A stretch of 15,118 nucleotides of DNA from a virus. The notes under the pieces are model-generated. The model did no database searches. It was given only the letters and a program-made list of their open reading frames with translations, and was not told where the DNA came from. The stretch lies in the UHGV virus genome UHGV-2163177. The stretch is one strand, 5' to 3'. Positions 1,529 to 14,974 of the stretch are shown in pieces (positions within the stretch are counted from its first letter, which is position 1; every line of letters begins with the position of its first letter). The position numbers and the translations under genes were made by a program.

Positions 1529-3517
1529 TTAGTTGTTAACTTGTACTTGTTCACAAGAAATATATCCCTGTCGTTTGTGTCTTCTCGCATGAGGAAATGC
1601 CAGTCTTATTTTTCCGGATCTTACTAATGGAACGAGCTGTTTTTCTCGTAGGTTCTGTGGTGTTCGGGCCATTAACTTTGCAATAACACTAAGCGGCATA
1701 TAATGGCCTGAGCAAAGCTTAAGTATGATTTCGTCCATGGTTTCGTTGGAAAGTCGTTTCTTTTCTCTGGCTAATGCAGATATGTCTTCTAACCGTTGCC
1801 TTAAGGTTGGTGAAAGGCACTCAAGGTTATCCACATAAGGAAAAGGTAGTTTCTCGGTTATAAAACGACCTAAAGCATCTCGTTCTTTTTCGTTATCCGT
1901 GATCAATTCTTCGTTATCCGTGATCAAATTATCGCTATCCGTGATGATTTGAGCTTCGTTTGCGAATGAGTTGTCTGTTGATAACGGATTTACACCAAAA
2001 ACTTCCTCTGGAGATGGAAGATCCTGCCCCGGTAATGTATATGATTTATTCCTCTTCTCACCATGAGGGACTAAGAATCCGCCGCTTACAAGGCGGGGTA
2101 AGGCTAAAGTTACCTCACGAGAGTGAAGGCTAGTTAGTTGACAAGCCCGTTCATGGTCAATCCACTTTTCTACGGCTGCAGTTATAACAATACTGCGCTC
2201 AAGCTCACTGAGATGGTCTACTTTGTCGCCAAATTTTGTATGGAGAAGATTGGCAATTTCTTCTGATACGAGGTTGCCAATAGATAGCTCCAAAAGTGTT
2301 TGTTCTGGTTCTGTTTTTTCATATAGCCTTGGCATACGCCAGTTAGCCCATTTCCAGCCACTAAATATTTTAGGGATCCCTGAGCCTGATCGTTCACCAG
2401 CACCAATAATTAAAAACATTTGATGCATCAGTCGGTTTCGACAATCGCTTTCATATCCTTTGATTGCTTGTTCTGGTGGCACGCGCATCAAACCTGGATT
2501 ACGGAAGCCAAATAGATCTGGTCGTTTCACAACCATGATGGAGATTCGTCCAGTATAATCGGCATGAACTAAGGTATTTACCAGCGCTTCACGCAATGCT
2601 GTGTGTATCTGAGTATCGTCCTGTCGGATACCTTCTTTAAGCTCAAAAGGGACTTTTAAGTCAGCAATTAGTTTTCGATAGGTTCGTCTGTAAAAGTCAA
2701 ACACGTTACCTGACCAAGTCCCATCGGGACATAGTCTATCTACCCATCTTCTTTCAGTTCTTGCTTCAGGGCGTTCTTGGTAATCCACAAAATAATTTGG
2801 GGCTACATCTTGTATCGCTTCCCATGTTCCAAACATGAGAATGCCAGCTAAGGTCATGCCTTCCAAACCTGTTTGCCGGTCTTTTCTATATCCCCCAATA
2901 CTTCGTAGGAAAGCAAAGTTATCTAGTTCGAGAGCTGGATGTGTCGGGTTTGAAGCAGATAGTAGATTTCTGTAAGCCAACAAGCTTTCTAGGTTAATAT
3001 CGTTCATGTCGAAGTTTTGTACGATACGGTTGTCGCGGCTTTCTTCAACCTGTTCGGCCATCATGCGACGAACTTGTTCTTCTGAACAACGATGATCACC
3101 GTCGTGCATACGAAACCATGTTTCTGACATGGGTTGATTATTCAAATAAACAGGTTTCTGTTCTCGTCGTGCGATTGGTATTTCAATGACAAGAATATCC
3201 TTTCCCTGTAAGGATACTGTTTGGACAGAGTTATTGGTAAGAAGATTAACGTTAACTTTTTTCTTGTTGCTCACGAGGTCGAAAAGCTGCTTTTTAACGG
3301 TATTTATATCTGAAATACCCGCAACGGAAAATTCCCCTTTTTTCTCTCTAATACCTAAAACCACATACCCACCACGGCAGTTTGCCATAGCACTATAGGT
3401 TGGCCAGAAATCATCAGGTAATTTACCTTGTCCGTCTTTCCCTTGAGCTAGCTTGAACTCTAGCTCTGCGGATTCCGAAAGTGCACGCAAGTCGCTAAGG
3501 TCAGATATTAGGAACAC
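1529..3517 (-). CDS. AlbA_2 (Schlafen-like) N-terminal domain plus HATPase_c_4-like ATPase domain protein, 662 aa; often mis-annotated as RecG-like helicase or transcriptional regulator
   Basis: Long ORF with GTG start 4 nt after a GGAGGA SD. N-terminal ESAELEFK motif is typical of AlbA_2; central ALREALVNTLVHADY motif is typical of HATPase_c_4. Domains read by eye. Confidence 0.75.
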   Translation of the reverse strand: MFLISDLSDLRALSESAELEFKLAQGKDGQGKLPDDFWPTYSAMANCRGGYVVLGIREKKGEFSVAGISDINTVKKQLFDLVSNKKKVNVNLLTNNSVQTVSLQGKDILVIEIPIARREQKPVYLNNQPMSETWFRMHDGDHRCSEEQVRRMMAEQVEESRDNRIVQNFDMNDINLESLLAYRNLLSASNPTHPALELDNFAFLRSIGGYRKDRQTGLEGMTLAGILMFGTWEAIQDVAPNYFVDYQERPEARTERRWVDRLCPDGTWSGNVFDFYRRTYRKLIADLKVPFELKEGIRQDDTQIHTALREALVNTLVHADYTGRISIMVVKRPDLFGFRNPGLMRVPPEQAIKGYESDCRNRLMHQMFLIIGAGERSGSGIPKIFSGWKWANWRMPRLYEKTEPEQTLLELSIGNLVSEEIANLLHTKFGDKVDHLSELERSIVITAAVEKWIDHERACQLTSLHSREVTLALPRLVSGGFLVPHGEKRNKSYTLPGQDLPSPEEVFGVNPLSTDNSFANEAQIITDSDNLITDNEELITDNEKERDALGRFITEKLPFPYVDNLECLSPTLRQRLEDISALAREKKRLSNETMDEIILKLCSGHYMPLSVIAKLMARTPQNLREKQLVPLVRSGKIRLAFPHARRHKRQGYISCEQVQVNN
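1890..1952. repeat. Three tandem copies of a 21-bp unit (tcgttatccgtgatcaa...) inside the 1529..3517 CDS, in frame
   Basis: Units at 1890-1910, 1911-1931, 1932-1952; the first 16 nt are identical in units 1 and 2. Encodes heptad-like ITDSDNL/ITDNEEL/ITDNEKE. Confidence 0.85.
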
Positions 3518-3801
3518 AGTTCCTCCATATGAAACTTATGGGTATAAATTTTTCACATTTTACTCTAGTTTAAGTGGTAGGAAAGAACATGAAAGGTTAT
3601 TAAAACGTTGATAACACTGATACCTGTACGTTTGAACAGGGTATTGAATAGTCAGTATGTTGCTCTGCTATGAAATGCTTTATTCGTTATGATCCTTATT
3701 TATCCACAATGATTTTCTAGTTGTCCGTGATGAAGGTTAGATAGGAATCACAGATAATTGGTAGGAGGGGCTATTATATCGGCATCATGCCCACCAGCTA
3801 C

Positions 3802-3824
3802 AAAAAAGCCTTGCCCGTAGGCTT
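3802..3824 (-). terminator. Rho-independent terminator downstream of the small ORF 3864..4043
   Basis: Stem aagcct/aggctt with 7-nt loop (3806-3824), followed on the minus strand by a U-run (plus-strand A-run 3802-3807). Confidence 0.5.
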
Positions 3825-3863
3825 AATGTTTGGCTTGAATATCGGCTTACTGTAACGCCTCGC

Positions 3864-4043
3864 TCACCGTCGCGGCCTGTCCGGTTTCTTCCACTGATAC
3901 GGCCTCACATCATCCTGCTGGTGGCGTTCCTGTTGCAGCACAACGGAAACAGGCGCTGAACACCTGTTAATTTTTCTTGCAGGTTGTTTGATTCCGGCAA
4001 TGCTGCGGATCATCTCCAGCAAATCGGCTTCGGTGATGGTCAT
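3864..4043 (-). CDS. Hypothetical small protein, 59 aa (MTITEADLLEMIRSIAGIKQ...), below the ORF-track length cutoff
   Basis: ATG at 4043 preceded by AAGGTG SD with 6-nt spacing; terminator hairpin about 40 nt past the stop; translated by hand. Confidence 0.45.
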   Translation of the reverse strand: MTITEADLLEMIRSIAGIKQPARKINRCSAPVSVVLQQERHQQDDVRPYQWKKPDRPRR

Positions 4044-4075
4044 GATTTACACCTTAGGAAATCTTAGGTGGCTGG

Positions 4076-4341
4076 TTGACACTTTCCAGCTTAAGACCTT
4101 AACAAACCTTAACATCGCAGGTTGACACACTTGACACTTTTTCGCGAAAAACCTTAACAAAACTTAACCACCCCTGGCATTTCTAAGCATGGCAACTTGA
4201 CACTTTTCGCGATTTTTTCGGTTTTTTGACGTGGTGAATATGGTACAAGGCCAGTAATGGCGCGGCTTCTAGCGAGGTTGACACTTTTTCGCGTTCAGAG
4301 TGTAAAGTGTCAACCTGGCAAGCTGCTCAACTTGACACTTT
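4076..4341. repeat. Iteron array: five direct copies plus one truncated and one inverted copy of TTGACAC(TTT), several extended to TTGACACTTTTTCGCG, interleaved with ACCTTAACA-type repeats
   Basis: Full copies start at 4076, 4131, 4197, 4278, 4332; truncated ttgacac at 4122; inverted copy at 4305-4315; ccttaaca repeats at 4095-4118 and 4149-4170. Lies between the small ORF and the HTH gene. Confidence 0.8.
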
Positions 4342-4347
4342 TTGATG

Positions 4348-4875
4348 TCATTGATGGTCTGATTTTTCCCATTCAGCCAGGGCGTTTAGCCCGGCTTCAC
4401 TCCATGATTCCAGTTCATCGGGATAATCACCTGCAACATAGCAGAGTTCGCAACGCAGCATACGAATTGCCAGCCTGGCATTACCTCGCAAATTGTATTT
4501 TTCAAAGTAATGCTGCCCTTCATCATCCTCAAGGCAGATAGCACCATCATCAAGAAAGTGCACTTCCCAGCCTAATTCCCCGGCTGCATACAGCACACGC
4601 TGCTGTATGTCATCGTCCGTTACTGGCGAAGGAATTTTACCGTCTCTGGCCTTAACTGCTTTCCAGAACTCGCCCCACGTCATTTCCAGCGTTCTTTCTG
4701 GCCACATTTCAGAAACGGTGTCTTTCCCTTGTGCCGGTGGGCTGTTCCGCTGCTCTGTCGCCTCCACATCAATTTTTTTGCCAGACATGATCACTTCGCC
4801 TTTCTCGATCCAGTCGTAAACTGTCTGGCGGCTTACGCCTTTGTATTTGGCGTATTCGGCTTTACTCATCAACAT
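4348..4875 (-). CDS. Putative HTH DNA-binding protein, 175 aa (N-terminal KYKGVSRQTVYDWIEKGEV helix-turn-helix)
   Basis: ORF 4348..4884; start placed at the ATG with GAGGTGA SD 5 nt upstream (the track start is a GTG three codons earlier). Confidence 0.65.
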   Translation of the reverse strand: MLMSKAEYAKYKGVSRQTVYDWIEKGEVIMSGKKIDVEATEQRNSPPAQGKDTVSEMWPERTLEMTWGEFWKAVKARDGKIPSPVTDDDIQQRVLYAAGELGWEVHFLDDGAICLEDDEGQHYFEKYNLRGNARLAIRMLRCELCYVAGDYPDELESWSEAGLNALAEWEKSDHQ

Positions 4876-4974
4876 GTAGCTCACCTCATGCGTATACGAT
4901 AAAAAATAATTTCATGCGGAAAGGGAATGCGTTGTGGGTATGGAGGAAAGGGGCAATAACCGCCCCTTACTGAT

Positions 4975-5247
4975 TCAGTTGCGCCAGGATGGCTGGCTAA
5001 GCGTGGTTTTCATTACATCATTGACGACCTGTTTTACGATTTCTGTGTTGGCAGTCGTGCTTTCAACATCAACAAAGCCATAATCGCCAATTTCCACCGT
5101 CAGGGATTCCAGTTTCTTCCCTAGAGCATCAGGCAACTCTCCACTGAACCGGTGCTGAAGATTTTCCACCAGCAACGCCCTGAATGCCTCGCTGTTCTCT
5201 TTTTTCTGCCATAGCTGGCGTTTATCCACTCTGATATTTAATTTCAC
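4975..5247 (-). CDS. Hypothetical protein, 90 aa
   Basis: GTG start overlapping the stop of the upstream gene (GTGA), preceded by AGAGGTGA SD. Confidence 0.5.
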   Translation of the reverse strand: MKLNIRVDKRQLWQKKENSEAFRALLVENLQHRFSGELPDALGKKLESLTVEIGDYGFVDVESTTANTEIVKQVVNDVMKTTLSQPSWRN

Positions 5248-7324: not shown

Positions 7325-7552
7325 TTCACCTGTTCACCTTTTTCCGTTTCTCCTTTTAATTCATTGTGTTAAGGGGTGAACAGTTTCACAAAAACTATTC
7401 ACCAACTGTTCACCACTGTTCACCCTTAAAGCTCAACAAATAATCAAAAAGGTGAACAGTGAATAGTTTGATGAACAGTTCATGAATAACTGTTCACCCT
7501 ATAACCAACTGATATAGAACACATTTATTACAGGGTGAACAGTGATGAACAG
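7325..7552. repeat. P4-type 'type I' iteron array: about ten copies of TGTTCACC or close variants in both orientations; putative replication origin (ori/crr-like)
   Basis: Perfect octamers at 7331, 7407, 7417, 7491 (direct) and 7375, 7451, 7535 (inverse), plus variants tattcacc, gtgaatag, atgaacag. Immediately downstream of the helicase gene. Confidence 0.8.
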
Positions 7553-7565
7553 TTATTCCATAAGT

Positions 7566-9380
7566 TTAATTTTTGCCATCGTCATTTGTGACCGATGCAC
7601 ATGAGGGCATCCAGTCTTCTGAATCCTCTGTCAGTATCACGTTTGAACGCAAGCCATGCTTCGTTTTCCGTTTCATATACTCCCTGCCGTATTCCGCCAT
7701 TGCCCCTGGCATATCCTTACCGAAGCGTGTCAGTGTTACGGGCTTACCGAATCCGTGTGCCCTCATATACGCCAGATAGGCGTGATAGAGATACCTGCGC
7801 GGGCTGAACGGAATAATTTCAGCATTACCCACTAACAGGCCATCGCACATTACCGACGACATGAGATAGCCGCAGAAGTCCACCAGCGAATCGCCCTCGC
7901 GTTTTATCACCAAGGCTTCTTCTGATTTCTGCTGCTCATATAGCAGGCGTTTAGCTTCGTCCTGGTCAGAAAAGCGTGTAAGCAGGTGGCGAATCACTAC
8001 CGCCAGCTCTCCTTCTATTTTTTCAGCCAGCATAGGGTCACGTTCGTTCTCCGGTACAACTTCCGAAAAATTGAATATTACCCGACGACGTGATATCCCA
8101 CCGCTGCGGTCACTGAATGACATGGCGTTATTGTTCACCGCCAGCACGACCGCCTGAATGCGTGTTGAGTAGGGGGCTTTATGTTTCGGGTCGATTGCCA
8201 CCTTATCACCGCCTGTAATGGCCTTAATCCCTGCACCATCACCAGCGTAACGGGTCATATCCGGCATGATAATCAGCGAAAAGCCAACCACTAACGCACG
8301 TTCCCTGGCATCTTCCAGCGCCTTCATGCTTGCCGATACCGTGTTGGCCTTACCCGCCAGCATAGTGCAAATCTCCGCCATTACGCTTTTACCGCTTCCA
8401 CCCGGCCCCGTTACCTCAAGAAATAACTGCCAGTCGTACCGATTCGCCAGCACCATGAATAACGCCGCCAGTACGCGATCTGCCTTGCGGTCATTCTCAG
8501 CCACCGAACGGCGCAACCACTTCCAGAAATTCGGCGCATGTGTTGCCAGCGTTTCCCCCTCTGCTGGTGGGCTGAAAGGTAATTCACTGGCAATTAACAA
8601 CCAGTCGTTTTTGTTATGCTCCCGAAAATTACCAGTTCTGGTATCAAATACCCCGTTACTGAATCCAATCAGGTTACGGGCTGTATTCCCCATTACGGGC
8701 AAACTTAACTTCATGGTATCGACCGCCGATTTGATGGCGTTCTGCGAATAGCTGATTTCCGCATCAATAAAAATCTGCGCCATAGCCCGCTGTAACTCTT
8801 TATCCTGTACCGGCTCCCATACAACACCGTTGTAGTGGTGAACGGTGTCAGAATCCGCATTGATTGCCAGTTCACCGCCATAATGTGCCAGGAGAACTTC
8901 GCCGCGCTGGCTTGCTCCCATCTGGTTAAGTGCCAGTGGTGTCGCGCTGTCTTCTGTTTTTTTCTTTGCCGGAAACCGGATAATCAGTCCGTCATCAATG
9001 TTTTTACGCTCACGGGCAAGGTATTCACGCCAGTTCTCACACTTCTGGCTGTGCATGCCATCAGGGTAATAATTCGCATTCTGTATACTTGCCGCCGCCA
9101 GCTTCTGACCAATTGCCTTAACCATTACAGGATCTAACTGTCCGGCTCTGAATATGCGCGCGGATGTGCGCCCATCAGGCACTATTTGCAGATTTCCGAT
9201 CTCTTTCAGTTGTTCATCAGCCAGCACAACAGGTGGCTCATTATCTCCAGCCATACGCGCATCGTGTTCCTGCCATTGTTTCGCGTGTGCCCAGGCATCA
9301 CTACCCGCGAAAATAATTACCTCTGTGTCTTTGTGTTTTATTCCGCGTGGCTGTTTTTTTACGTTCGGTGCCAGTTTCAT
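7566..9380 (-). CDS. P4-family primase/helicase-like protein, 604 aa (P4 alpha-like helicase and origin-binding region; the N-terminal primase domain appears to be missing)
   Basis: Walker A TGPGGSGKS; IKAITGGDKVAIDPKHKAPY...RRRVIFNFS matches the P4-family primase C-terminal (SF3 helicase) pattern; GGGGGG SD; start overlaps upstream stop. Confidence 0.85.
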   Translation of the reverse strand: MKLAPNVKKQPRGIKHKDTEVIIFAGSDAWAHAKQWQEHDARMAGDNEPPVVLADEQLKEIGNLQIVPDGRTSARIFRAGQLDPVMVKAIGQKLAAASIQNANYYPDGMHSQKCENWREYLARERKNIDDGLIIRFPAKKKTEDSATPLALNQMGASQRGEVLLAHYGGELAINADSDTVHHYNGVVWEPVQDKELQRAMAQIFIDAEISYSQNAIKSAVDTMKLSLPVMGNTARNLIGFSNGVFDTRTGNFREHNKNDWLLIASELPFSPPAEGETLATHAPNFWKWLRRSVAENDRKADRVLAALFMVLANRYDWQLFLEVTGPGGSGKSVMAEICTMLAGKANTVSASMKALEDARERALVVGFSLIIMPDMTRYAGDGAGIKAITGGDKVAIDPKHKAPYSTRIQAVVLAVNNNAMSFSDRSGGISRRRVIFNFSEVVPENERDPMLAEKIEGELAVVIRHLLTRFSDQDEAKRLLYEQQKSEEALVIKREGDSLVDFCGYLMSSVMCDGLLVGNAEIIPFSPRRYLYHAYLAYMRAHGFGKPVTLTRFGKDMPGAMAEYGREYMKRKTKHGLRSNVILTEDSEDWMPSCASVTNDDGKN

Positions 9381-11462: not shown

Positions 11463-12263
11463 TTACACATGGCTGTTTTCCTCCATGCGACGGGCTAACC
11501 AACGCTGCGAAAGGCGAATTAATTCCGCTTTCCGCTGGTGGTAGTCCTGGCCTAACTCAATCAGCGTGATATTGCTCTGCTCAAGGTAAGAAAGGTGCTC
11601 AAGCTGCAACGTGCTCATGTGGTCGCGTGGTTCGCCTGTAATGCCGTTCGCCTGTGCCCACTGTTTTGCAGTCATGCCACCCAGCACGATACGCGCCAGC
11701 ATATTGGCTTCCGTGGTGTAGTGGTGCTGGAACGTGTTTTTACCCAGTTCAGCCCGGTACGCCTCCAGCGCGGCACACATCGGCTTAAAGTAGCTGGCAA
11801 CGGTGATACGGGCTTTCAGTTCCCGGCGTAACGCTGCGGAACGCACTGGCGCTACCTTGTGTAGCTCCTCCTCGCATTTGATGAAGTACTGACGAACGGC
11901 ACGGCCCTGTTCGGTGCGTTCGACCATCGCCAGTTCTTTTGCCATGTTCACGGTGATGATGTACTCAAGAGCTGTTTGCTGGCGAGATTTTGCGCTCACC
12001 GGATCGGGTCGGCTCAAATATTCAACAACCTCATAATCCACGCCTTCCGTGAAGCCGTATTCTTCAATGCGCCCCTTGATCCACGAACGGAAAACGCGCC
12101 CTACACCTAACGCCTTATGCAACGCTCTGGCACTAACAATATTGGTTTCACGCCCGCCAATAACGCCGGAAATAACCGGGATAATTTCACCAAAATTTTG
12201 CAGATTCTGGTTTTCAGGCCGAACGAAGCCCTGCCCCTGTACGGGCGTTTTTGGAAATTTCAT
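11463..12263 (-). CDS. Phage antirepressor, AntA/AntB N-terminal domain family, 266 aa
   Basis: NIVSARALHKALGVGRVFRSWIKGRIEEYGFTEGVDY matches the AntA/AntB pattern; AGGAG SD 7 nt upstream of the ATG. Confidence 0.75.
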   Translation of the reverse strand: MKFPKTPVQGQGFVRPENQNLQNFGEIIPVISGVIGGRETNIVSARALHKALGVGRVFRSWIKGRIEEYGFTEGVDYEVVEYLSRPDPVSAKSRQQTALEYIITVNMAKELAMVERTEQGRAVRQYFIKCEEELHKVAPVRSAALRRELKARITVASYFKPMCAALEAYRAELGKNTFQHHYTTEANMLARIVLGGMTAKQWAQANGITGEPRDHMSTLQLEHLSYLEQSNITLIELGQDYHQRKAELIRLSQRWLARRMEENSHV

Positions 12264-13512: not shown

Positions 13513-14766
13513 TTATTTATTAGATTGCGTGATGTCAGAACATATCATGTTTTCTAAATTCACCAGCAAATCAGTCCATTGTGCTAGTGCCGCTTTGCGC
13601 TCATCAAAATATTGATGGCGGTTATAAATGCCCTCTACGCCTTTTATGCGGTGGTTAAGGCATCGTTCAGCAACGATCGGGTCAACTCCCAATGCTGCTA
13701 AATGTGTTCGTGCTGTTCGCCGGAAGTCGTGAATTGTAAAGTTGGGGACGTTCGGCATTTCTGCTCTGACTTTTGCCAATGCAACAGGAAGGGTGCTTTC
13801 CTGGATGTGAGGGATCATTCTGTGCTGCATTTTTCTGGCAGGTAATACCCATGCGCTATTGCATGAAAATGTATGCAATTCTCGCAACCATTCTATAGCC
13901 GCTGGTGGCAATGGTATGTCGATAGCATCACCATTTTTAGTTCGTTGTTCTGGTAGATGCCAAATCGCGCCATCTAAGTCGAATTCATCCCACTTGGCGG
14001 CGCATAATTCCATTTTTCTGACACACAACGCCAGGAGCAACTTAAAGGTTAATTCGTTCTGGCGGCTGAATCCTTTGGCTTTACGCATTGCCTGAAAAAA
14101 TTGGATTAATTCGTCCCGGTTCAGCCAACGATCACGAGATAATTCTTTCCCACCAGCATCTGAAACTTCGAAAGCTGAGCAGGGGTTAACTTCCAAAGCA
14201 AGGCGTTTAATACCGTAGTCAAATATGCGACGTGTCCAGCGAAGAACGTCAGTAGCAATTGTTGGAGCGCCTCTATCAACAATACTTTTAAGCATAGCAT
14301 CAATATGGCGTGGTTTTACATCTTCAACCTTCATGTGGCCTATGGCTGGATTTATGTCTTTATCAATGCGCCTACGGAGAATATCTGGGTGTTTCCACCG
14401 GGGAAGTATTTGCCGTTCAAAGTATTCGGCGGCAAGTTCAGAAACGTGCAGCGCGTTTTTTTCGGCTTCTATTTTTGCCAGTGCTTCGGCTTTACGCTGC
14501 TGTTTTTCTGCGGCTACGTCATATCCCAAAGCAACTCGTGCGGAAAGTTCTTTTGCCCGTTCCCTCGCTTTTGATAACGATAATTCAGAATATGAACCAA
14601 TAAGCATGGCACGAGATTTTCCTGCTAGTTTATATCGAAACCGCCAGGTAGGGGATCTATCCACCTCTCTATACCGGAGATATAGCCCACCACCATCAGC
14701 ACGACCTTCGAAATGTTCTCCGGCTTTTATCCATGCGCGGATCTGCATATCTGTGAGTTTTGGCAT
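13513..14766 (-). CDS. int: Tyrosine integrase, P4-type (IntA/IntS-like), 417 aa
   Basis: N-terminal arm-binding-type domain (GGGLYLRYREV...WRFRYK); C-terminal catalytic region with HDFRRTARTHL and conserved Tyr region; located just inside attR. Confidence 0.9.
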   Translation of the reverse strand: MPKLTDMQIRAWIKAGEHFEGRADGGGLYLRYREVDRSPTWRFRYKLAGKSRAMLIGSYSELSLSKARERAKELSARVALGYDVAAEKQQRKAEALAKIEAEKNALHVSELAAEYFERQILPRWKHPDILRRRIDKDINPAIGHMKVEDVKPRHIDAMLKSIVDRGAPTIATDVLRWTRRIFDYGIKRLALEVNPCSAFEVSDAGGKELSRDRWLNRDELIQFFQAMRKAKGFSRQNELTFKLLLALCVRKMELCAAKWDEFDLDGAIWHLPEQRTKNGDAIDIPLPPAAIEWLRELHTFSCNSAWVLPARKMQHRMIPHIQESTLPVALAKVRAEMPNVPNFTIHDFRRTARTHLAALGVDPIVAERCLNHRIKGVEGIYNRHQYFDERKAALAQWTDLLVNLENMICSDITQSNK

Positions 14767-14953: not shown

Positions 14954-14974
14954 GTTACTCAATATTCTGAATCT
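14954..14974. repeat. attR core: 21-bp direct repeat gttactcaatattctgaatct overlapping the yicC stop codon
   Basis: Identical to 1386..1406; encodes the last yicC codons (...QIQNIE-stop) on the minus strand. Confidence 0.75.

Follow-up and report, generated by a model that had tools for sequence, protein, structure and literature searches.

A 304-bp array of TTGACAC-type repeats (4044-4347) in the virus genome UHGV-2163177 (15,118 nucleotides, called the window below, i.e., the whole stretch of DNA that was analysed) borders a gene for a 175-amino-acid (aa) helix-turn-helix (HTH) protein, and comparison with related elements indicates that the array goes with this HTH gene and not with the replication gene. 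The window is a phage satellite of the phage-inducible chromosomal island (PICI) type. As judged from alignments, the winged helix of the 175-aa protein is homologous to the DNA-binding domain of the Nu1-type terminase small subunit (TerS). The interpretation favoured here, which is given slightly less than an even chance, is that the array consists of R-type binding sites that provide packaging specificity according to the logic of Rpp and cosB, with unrelated proteins. The precedent is EcCICFT073, in which Rpp and a satellite-specific cosB redirect the lambda terminase (PMC6739421, PMC9026076).

The repeat array and the protein that accompanies it

The original prediction treated positions 3518-4347 as a single 830-bp non-coding region. 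This region in fact comprises a variable spacer, a conserved gene for a 59-aa protein and the array; since 3518-3786 is variable and 3864-4043 is a conserved gene, the feature of interest is confined to the 304 bp at 4044-4347. Positions 3787-4347 are present in approx. 160 more E. coli genomes (of 5426) than positions 3518-3786, at approx. 90-95% identity. Exact searches confirmed the proposed composition of five direct copies, one truncated copy and one inverted copy: TTGACACTTT occurs in six exact copies, five on the plus strand (4076, 4131, 4197, 4278, and 4332) and one on the minus strand (4304-4313), together with the truncated form TTGACACAC at 4122, and all copies lie within 4076-4341. 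Successive copies start 55, 66, 81, 26, and 28 bp apart, the value of 26 bp being the distance to the inverted copy; thus, the predicted spacing of 54-81 bp holds for the direct copies. No further copy of TTGACACTTT with up to one mismatch is present in the 15-kb window, and the six observed copies compare with a chance expectation of 0.046 per window and a maximum of two (first-order Markov model, 2000 runs). The 16-mer TTGACACTTTTTCGCG is found exactly at 4131 and 4278 and in a form with a one-base deletion at 4197. A blastn search of phage and plasmid collections with the array gave no significant match. The array and the adjoining gene are arranged as follows.

4052-4068, plus strand: CCTTAGGAAATCTTAGG, just upstream of the 59-aa open reading frame (ORF), which is on the minus strand
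4076-4085, plus strand: copy 1 of TTGACACTTT, which opens a 38-nt unit, TTGACACTTT-N11-CCTTAACA-N2-CCTTAAC, repeated at 4131
4097-4168, plus strand: second repeat family, with CCTTAACA exact at 4097, 4107, and 4152 and ACTTAACC at 4161
4122-4130, plus strand: truncated repeat TTGACACAC, abutting copy 2
4131-4146, plus strand: copy 2, the 16-mer TTGACACTTTTTCGCG
4197-4211, plus strand: copy 3, TTGACACTTTTCGCG
4212-4250: T-rich spacer of 39 bp (ATTTTTTCGGTTTTTTGACGTGGTGAATATGG...), between the left repeat set and the core
4251-4273, plus strand: 23-bp core CCAGTAATGGCGCGGCTTCTAGC, the centre of the array
4278-4293, plus strand: copy 4, the 16-mer TTGACACTTTTTCGCG
4304-4313, minus strand: inverted copy; the inverted pair nearest the HTH gene has a constant position in all relatives
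4332-4341, plus strand: copy 5, ending 6 bp short of the stop codon of the HTH gene
4348-4875, minus strand: gene for the 175-aa HTH protein (N-terminal winged helix and alpha/beta C-terminal domain)

The link between the array and the HTH gene is visible in relatives that were fetched via the 175-aa protein alone and therefore form an unbiased sample. In such loci from Escherichia ruysiae, Rouxiella, Raoultella, Buttiauxella, and Pantoea, clusters of AAAGTGTCAA begin at the stop codon of the HTH gene, and in Serratia and Erwinia the clusters are shifted 1.5-4 kb from it. Down to approx. 50% protein identity the layout is the same, i.e., stop codon, site, inverted site, sometimes a third site, core, and two or three further sites. 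Among 32 distinct relatives, conservation is 0.955 for the sites, 0.94 for the core, and 0.83 for the spacers and the rest, where it should be noted that the first inverted pair was used to retrieve many of these relatives and is thus present in them by construction; the retrieval did not depend on the other sites or on the centre. The array is present with an element primase that is 100%, 75%, or 45% identical to that of the window, or with none detected. A motif scan of IMG/VR yielded 105 loci; the 175-aa protein adjoins the motif in 47 of them, and a gene of the same helix clade lies no more than 900 bp from the array in 53 of the 69 loci that have at least four copies of the 7-mer. The earlier suggestion that the repeats form a binding array for the adjoining HTH protein thus receives comparative support, both from these 53 loci and from the Escherichia, Pantoea, Rouxiella, Raoultella, and Buttiauxella arrangements, and the repeats proved to be present and conserved, not absent, in related elements.

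The motif scan also caught 7-mer arrays that were regarded as promoter clusters or as origins with no relation to the present array, namely those of the low-GC phage contigs L034, L036, and L115 and those of the L061 group. In the latter (L061 6600-7400; also L021, L040, L052, and L094), at least 15 AAAGTGTCAA/AAAGTGTAAA repeats with TTAAGG motifs occupy an intergenic region beside the terminase operon, and the fetched part of these contigs revealed no HTH-clade protein. EcCIMP1 was considered as an experimentally studied relative and rejected, as the module is absent from it.

The second repeat family corresponds to the ccttaaca-type repeats that were originally described. Its exact copies at 4097, 4107, and 4152 were recovered, and the local pairs, which read on the gene strand as pairs of TGTTAAGG 10 bp apart, are conserved; however, the 8-mer CCTTAACA is not enriched across the window (15 occurrences vs. 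11.6 expected, one mismatch allowed). In relatives to approx. 50% protein identity, TGTTAAGG-N2-TGTTAAGG, CCTTAGGAAATCTTAGG (4052-4068), and CCTGGCATTTCTAAGCA (4173-4189) are all conserved, and the last two may be sites of a second protein.

Residues 1-41 of the 175-aa protein are almost invariant across a family that is common in Enterobacterales (Escherichia, Klebsiella, Serratia, Pantoea, Yersinia, and relatives) and is annotated as hypothetical throughout. In Pfam, the protein has a sub-threshold match to HTH_17; in PHROGs, its best match is phrog_57, the terminase small subunit. The best phage matches of the 44-residue N-terminal consensus are the Nu1-type TerS proteins of Serratia phage BZS1 (E 2e-5) and Citrobacter phage phiNP (E 7e-5), and the window protein (residues 3-40) can be aligned with phiNP TerS (residues 1-38) at 42% identity over 38 residues (E 6e-9). 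Foldseek searches of viral structures returned only generic HTH/excisionase matches (E>0.1) and nothing for the C-terminal domain, for which no informative relative was found. The original prediction named the HTH protein as the nearest candidate for an element regulator that binds the array; the array does follow the protein, but the protein does not resemble an ordinary regulator, since its DNA-binding domain is of the Nu1-type TerS kind.

TTGACAC repeats beside phage cohesive-end sites in sister satellites

In phage BZS1, a spacer, three GGTAACA repeats, and terS come after the annotated 12-nt left cohesive end GCATTGCGCGCC, and the arrangement in phiNP is the same, with tandem GGTAACA repeats before terS. 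A cosN of the phiNP/BZS1 type (no more than two mismatches to GGGCATTGCGCGCCGCG) was found in eight satellite-like loci (L023, L068, L075, L077, L099, L106, L111, and L117), where a cosQ-like GGGTCC(C/T)T box stands before it; most of these loci also keep the phage spacer CTAGCTATRA..TTTTGAA(A)TTTG. In the exact place of the phage G-GTAACA-G-GTAACA, the sister satellites have T-TGACAC-T-TTACAC-T-TGACAC, followed by further TTGACAC sites in both orientations and then by a gene for a protein of 186-194 aa (e.g., L099 1150-1450, minus strand). Homologues of a 55-aa ORF of the window are present in most of the sister loci, and homologues of its primase in several. The exchange of helper R-repeats for satellite repeats can be followed at single-base resolution beside an annotated phage cos. 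Judging from this position, the array in the sister loci is located where the terminase recognition site must be, and the eight loci apparently represent an Rpp-like system for a cos type other than that of lambda.

The 186-194-aa protein, which likewise has no annotation anywhere, starts with MS(L/F)MSVSQYAKHAGMSRQALY.W, matches phrog_57 over 87 residues, and aligns with phiNP TerS over 65 residues. With the window protein it shares the helix alone (52% identity over 21 residues). TTGACAC arrays thus accompany two protein families that have one helix clade in common. The sister satellites keep their TTGACAC arrays next to cosN without the 23-bp core, which argues that the function of the repeats is independent of the core.

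Two further observations concern these loci. The phiNP terS gene contains extra GGTAACA repeats (L121 3560-3760), which encode a GNSQGN-type repeat and, by their presence inside the gene, are possible additional TerS sites. In some relatives (L016 2457-7532; L099 1491-3293), phage tail genes stand between the 55-aa ORF and the HTH gene, immediately upstream of the module; among their products are a tape-measure-like protein, a baseplate hub, Dit, and a spike of the gpV type that bears the Apex motif, and their presence suggests that such satellites may alter the tails of their helpers.

Possible role in packaging specificity and alternative roles of the array

If the array serves packaging, the TTGACAC repeats would be recognition sites comparable to the lambda R elements and bound by the winged helix of the 175-aa protein, and protein and array together would constitute the packaging-specificity module of the satellite. 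Once a helper phage had induced the island and the island had replicated, the 175-aa protein would assemble on the array and, alone or with the helper TerS or large terminase subunit (TerL), would steer the helper terminase to satellite rather than phage DNA. Presumably, the protein binds the sites and the resulting complex recruits the terminase. Packaging and interference genes of PICIs sit downstream of the origin (PMC6739421, PMC6092414). The module is found in an operon downstream of the origin as well, with the gene order on the minus strand being int, AlpA-like regulator, primase, origin, and HTH gene.

The closest comparison is with Rpp and cosB of EcCICFT073 (PMC6739421, PMC9026076). 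Both elements are of the PICI type and have, downstream of the origin, a gene for a small protein with a TerS-fold N-terminal winged helix; both have satellite-specific sites that differ from the helper R elements, and in the sister loci these sites come after a helper-type cosQ-cosN, as they do in EcCICFT073. The differences are that the window protein has no similarity to RppA/B/C and has another C-terminal domain, that seven sites in two sets are present here whereas a single R3 has been proposed for the PICI, that the window has no recognisable cosN and carries a central origin-type core, and that the cos of the sister loci is of the phiNP/BZS1 type and not of the lambda type. Lambda cosB (R3-I1-R2-R1) resembles the array, as do BZS1 and phiNP with their GGTAACA repeats, in having short repeats in both orientations beside a gene for a Nu1-type winged-helix protein; in the window, however, the gene converges on sites that flank a centre, and neither cosN nor a recognisable integration host factor (IHF) site is present. 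The cosB features that the window lacks (a fixed short distance 3' of cosQ-cosN, and sites that lie upstream of the terS-like gene and are co-oriented with it) are found in the eight sister loci and in loci of the L099 type, respectively. The pac sites of SPP1 and P1 have TerS-binding repeats on either side of a central cleavage region. They resemble the array in that repeats flank a distinct central element, and there is no relation in sequence.

Several observations weigh against a packaging role. The cosN and cosQ of the lambda, phiNP/BZS1, and Chi types are absent from the window, and a search for lambda cosN (GGGCGGCGACCT, up to three mismatches) gave only chance-level matches; without a recognised cosN/cosQ, the cut site is missing unless the core or another site serves as one. 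The HTH gene converges on the array, whereas terS lies downstream of its sites, and the repeats stand on both sides of a centre, unlike those of lambda cosB. This centre is a core found elsewhere in replication origins, for which a packaging site has no obvious need. The winged HTH fold (wHTH) is also found in excisionases, Cox, BldC, and MerR, and the fold alone is thus no proof of a terminase role. No similarity to RppA/B/C was detected at E<=10 with phmmer and a family profile (sequences from the Protein Data Bank, including 6HLK and 6HN7), and the whole 175-aa protein had no tblastn match in 50,697 phage records, in which TerS genes were found with the 44-residue consensus only. Because the protein differs from Rpp in sequence, the array differs from cosB in the absence of cosN and in gene orientation, and only the core is shared with iteron origins, array and protein are classed separately: they would represent a second family of satellite proteins with a TerS DNA-binding domain, unrelated to Rpp and equipped with repeat arrays of its own. 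With the exchange of repeats in the sister loci, the Rpp principle would apply to another family of proteins, unrelated to the first, and to a cos other than that of lambda. Many enterobacterial "type C" PICIs have no recognisable packaging genes, and the module is a testable candidate for this role; the question of how such satellites enter helper capsids has been raised, e.g., for EcCIMP1 (PMC11773190).

The core at the centre of the array comes after a T-rich stretch and is conserved among the relatives of the array with the consensus CCAGTAAYGGCG(G/C)GGYTTRCAGC; an IMG/VR scan yielded this pattern in at least 120 viral contigs. The 99 newly fetched core loci (L126-L224) represent 15 unrelated sequence contexts, most of which have their own repeats adjacent to the core. 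Of these loci, 61 have the core in a gene for a lambda-O-like initiator, between two sets of four CCGCACATGA iterons and by an AT-rich stretch, with a DnaB-type helicase gene after it; 21 have it approx. 190 bp 3' of PICI alpha-type primases, between GGTAGAC iterons (for example, E. coli Nissle 1917, with DUF4222, primase, core-bearing origin, SSB, capsid, and TerS); and others have it beside a Rep_3-like gene with its own iterons or beside other primases. BLAST comparison revealed a diverged core (approx. 23/26 positions) in RCS47, a P1-like phage-plasmid, where it separates five RepA iterons from the GATC repeats in oriR. Another diverged core occurs in Chi-like phages, with GGTTACAAG repeats on its flanks; it adjoins the primase gene, at a distance of approx. 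440 bp from the left end. A more diverged core, GGCCAGACGTGGCGCGGCCTGCAACG, is found in P7, whose oriR has been defined by experiment; it makes up the G+C-rich spacer that separates the RepA iterons from the Dam heptamers. According to the mutational study of P1 oriR by Brendler, Abeles, and Austin (1991), this stretch is reportedly a spacer for which length is more important than sequence. That the core is so widely conserved suggests a role beyond that of a spacer. A literature search for the core sequence retrieved unrelated primers only. That the core is a cosN was rejected, as it occurs inside origins of phages and plasmids whose cos or pac is elsewhere, and so was an attachment (att) site, as the same iterons stand on both sides and the core lies within an ORF in one class. 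Quite apart from the array, the sharing of this core across iteron origins is a lead for replication biology. Two isolated occurrences may be added. The phage contig L191 (10800-11110, minus strand) has two cores in a large inverted repeat directly upstream of terS-terL, flanked by AGTCCTTAG/AGTCCTTAA repeats that resemble the CCTTAAC repeats of the window, and P4 (L225) has a core-like sequence at 11547-11570 (18/24 positions), 55-77 bp from the right cohesive end, possibly by chance.

The distribution of the core bears on the proposal, also made in the original prediction, that the array is a second origin. On this view, the TTGACAC repeats would act as iterons, the origin-binding protein would be the 175-aa protein, and initiation would be centred on the T-rich stretch and the core, as in oriR of P1/P7. 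This main alternative is a serious possibility, to which clearly less than even weight, perhaps somewhat less than a third, is assigned. The core is present within many unrelated iteron origins (lambda-O-type, PICI alpha-type, and Rep_3-like), in diverged form in RCS47 oriR and more diverged in P7, where it forms the G+C-rich spacer, and the anatomy of the array (repeat set, T-rich stretch, G+C core, and second repeat set) fits origins such as P1/P7 oriR; moreover, the RCS47 iterons ATCGCGTAYAGTCAAC resemble the gene-strand form of the 16-mer, CGCGAAAAAGTGTCAA. Nonetheless, the TTGACAC array is not the canonical origin of the element, which lies beside the primase (7326-7567) and whose type I iteron, TGTTCACC, is absent from 3518-4347; in EcCICFT073, a pri-rep-ori segment suffices for replication (PMC6092414). 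No homologue of Rep, O, or RepA is present, the DNA-binding domain of the adjoining protein is of the terminase type, and the spacing is irregular (26-81 bp, with one copy inverted), in contrast to the approx. 22 bp of typical iterons. Compared with P1/P7 oriR, the array also lacks the GATC heptamers and a DnaA box in its conserved part, the perfect box at 3700 being in the variable segment, and in the sister satellites the TTGACAC arrays stand beside cosN without the core. An intermediate interpretation, to which only about one chance in five is given, is that the array is a hybrid cis-element in which a TerS-derived protein is arranged around an origin-type core, either as a new initiator or as a coupling of replication start to packaging recognition; separately, the core CCAGTAAYGGCGCGGSTTNCAGC would be a previously unrecognised sequence-specific module that iteron origins with no other relation have in common (lambda-O-type, alpha-primase PICI, Rep_3, and, as diverged forms, oriR of P1/P7 and RCS47), e.g., the site of a conserved host factor.

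It is improbable that the array is simply an operator through which the HTH protein controls the small ORF and the cargo genes, or its own operon. The array does lie between the HTH gene and ORF 3864-4043 within one minus-strand operon, a weak -35/-10 pair (TGGAAA-N17-TAAGAT) can be made out by eye on the minus strand just upstream of the small ORF, the wHTH fold is common to the MerR, Cox, and BldC regulators that bind direct-repeat arrays, and two Pantoea homologues are called 'Repressor' in one source. However, seven sites over 270 bp with a conserved central core go far beyond the needs of an operator, and the cosN-adjacent sister arrays, the TerS-specific similarity, and the origin-type core would be left unexplained. 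Hardly any weight can be given to the proposal that the TTGACA hexamers are -35 boxes of antisense promoters for a regulatory RNA, as in the immunity of P4/P1. Six perfect hexamers do point rightward, antisense to the operon, as originally noted, yet they have no acceptable -10 partner at 16-18 bp, and a promoter scan of 3400-5100 found none, compared with 2.5 in shuffled sequence. Furthermore, what is conserved is the whole TTGACACTTT 10-mer with an inverted copy at a fixed position and not just the -35 hexamer, and Rfam gave no match at gathering score in the window (within 3500-4400 at E<=10, two chance-level matches with E 7.6-9.9). This part of the original prediction is not upheld.

The satellite island and its other genes

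The window is 99.9% identical to the chromosome of E. coli ABU 83972, where dinD and yicC are the genes on either side of the insertion point. The 13.6-kb island between these genes probably has its att ends at a 21-bp direct repeat, GTTACTCAATATTCTGAATCT (1386-1406 and 14954-14974), and all of its genes are on the minus strand. The features of a PICI are present, namely an integrase, an AlpA-type regulator, a primase-helicase with an adjoining iteron origin, and att repeats, and capsid and lysis genes are absent; the gene content and size are the same as those of Gram-negative PICI-type satellites (PMC6092414, PMC11773190). In their order along the minus strand, the island contains the following features beside the module.

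13513-14766, minus strand: integrase
after the integrase, minus strand, in this order: AlpA-like regulator, AntA/B antirepressor, Icd-like protein, and DUF4222 protein
7566-9380, minus strand: primase-helicase of the D5/P4-alpha type
7326-7567: canonical origin, directly 3' of the primase-helicase gene, with seven exact copies of TGTTCACC and near-copies
between the primase-helicase and HTH genes, minus strand: ProQ/FinO and PerC proteins, then two small ORFs
3864-4043, minus strand: 59-aa ORF that has a Shine-Dalgarno sequence and lies downstream of the array; terminator at 3806-3824
3518-3786: variable spacer, outside the conserved module, which goes with the 662-aa cargo gene
1529-3517, minus strand: 662-aa cargo protein (Schlafen/AlbA_2 and HATPase_c_4)

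The iterons of the canonical origin (CTGTTCACC; the exact copies of TGTTCACC span 7331-7541) form two sets in both orientations with an AT-rich centre between them, and P4 has TGTTCACC as the annotated type I iteron of its ori and crr. This origin is like P4 in its layout (crr) and in the adjoining alpha-like primase-helicase; the TTGACAC array differs from P4 ori/crr in both its motif and its linked protein.

The 59-aa ORF is kept as a protein in relatives, with 75-98% identity, and has weak matches to phrog_1561 and phrog_7271, both of unknown function. The cargo gene, which is possibly a defence gene, is carried together with 3518-3786 by just 8-9 of the 5426 E. coli genomes. Within the gene, an ITDNEEL-type repeat is encoded by three 21-bp tandem repeats (1886-1948). 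Perfect DnaA boxes (TTATCCACA) are located at 3700-3708 in the variable spacer and at 1827-1835 in the cargo gene, a count that is not above chance for the window.

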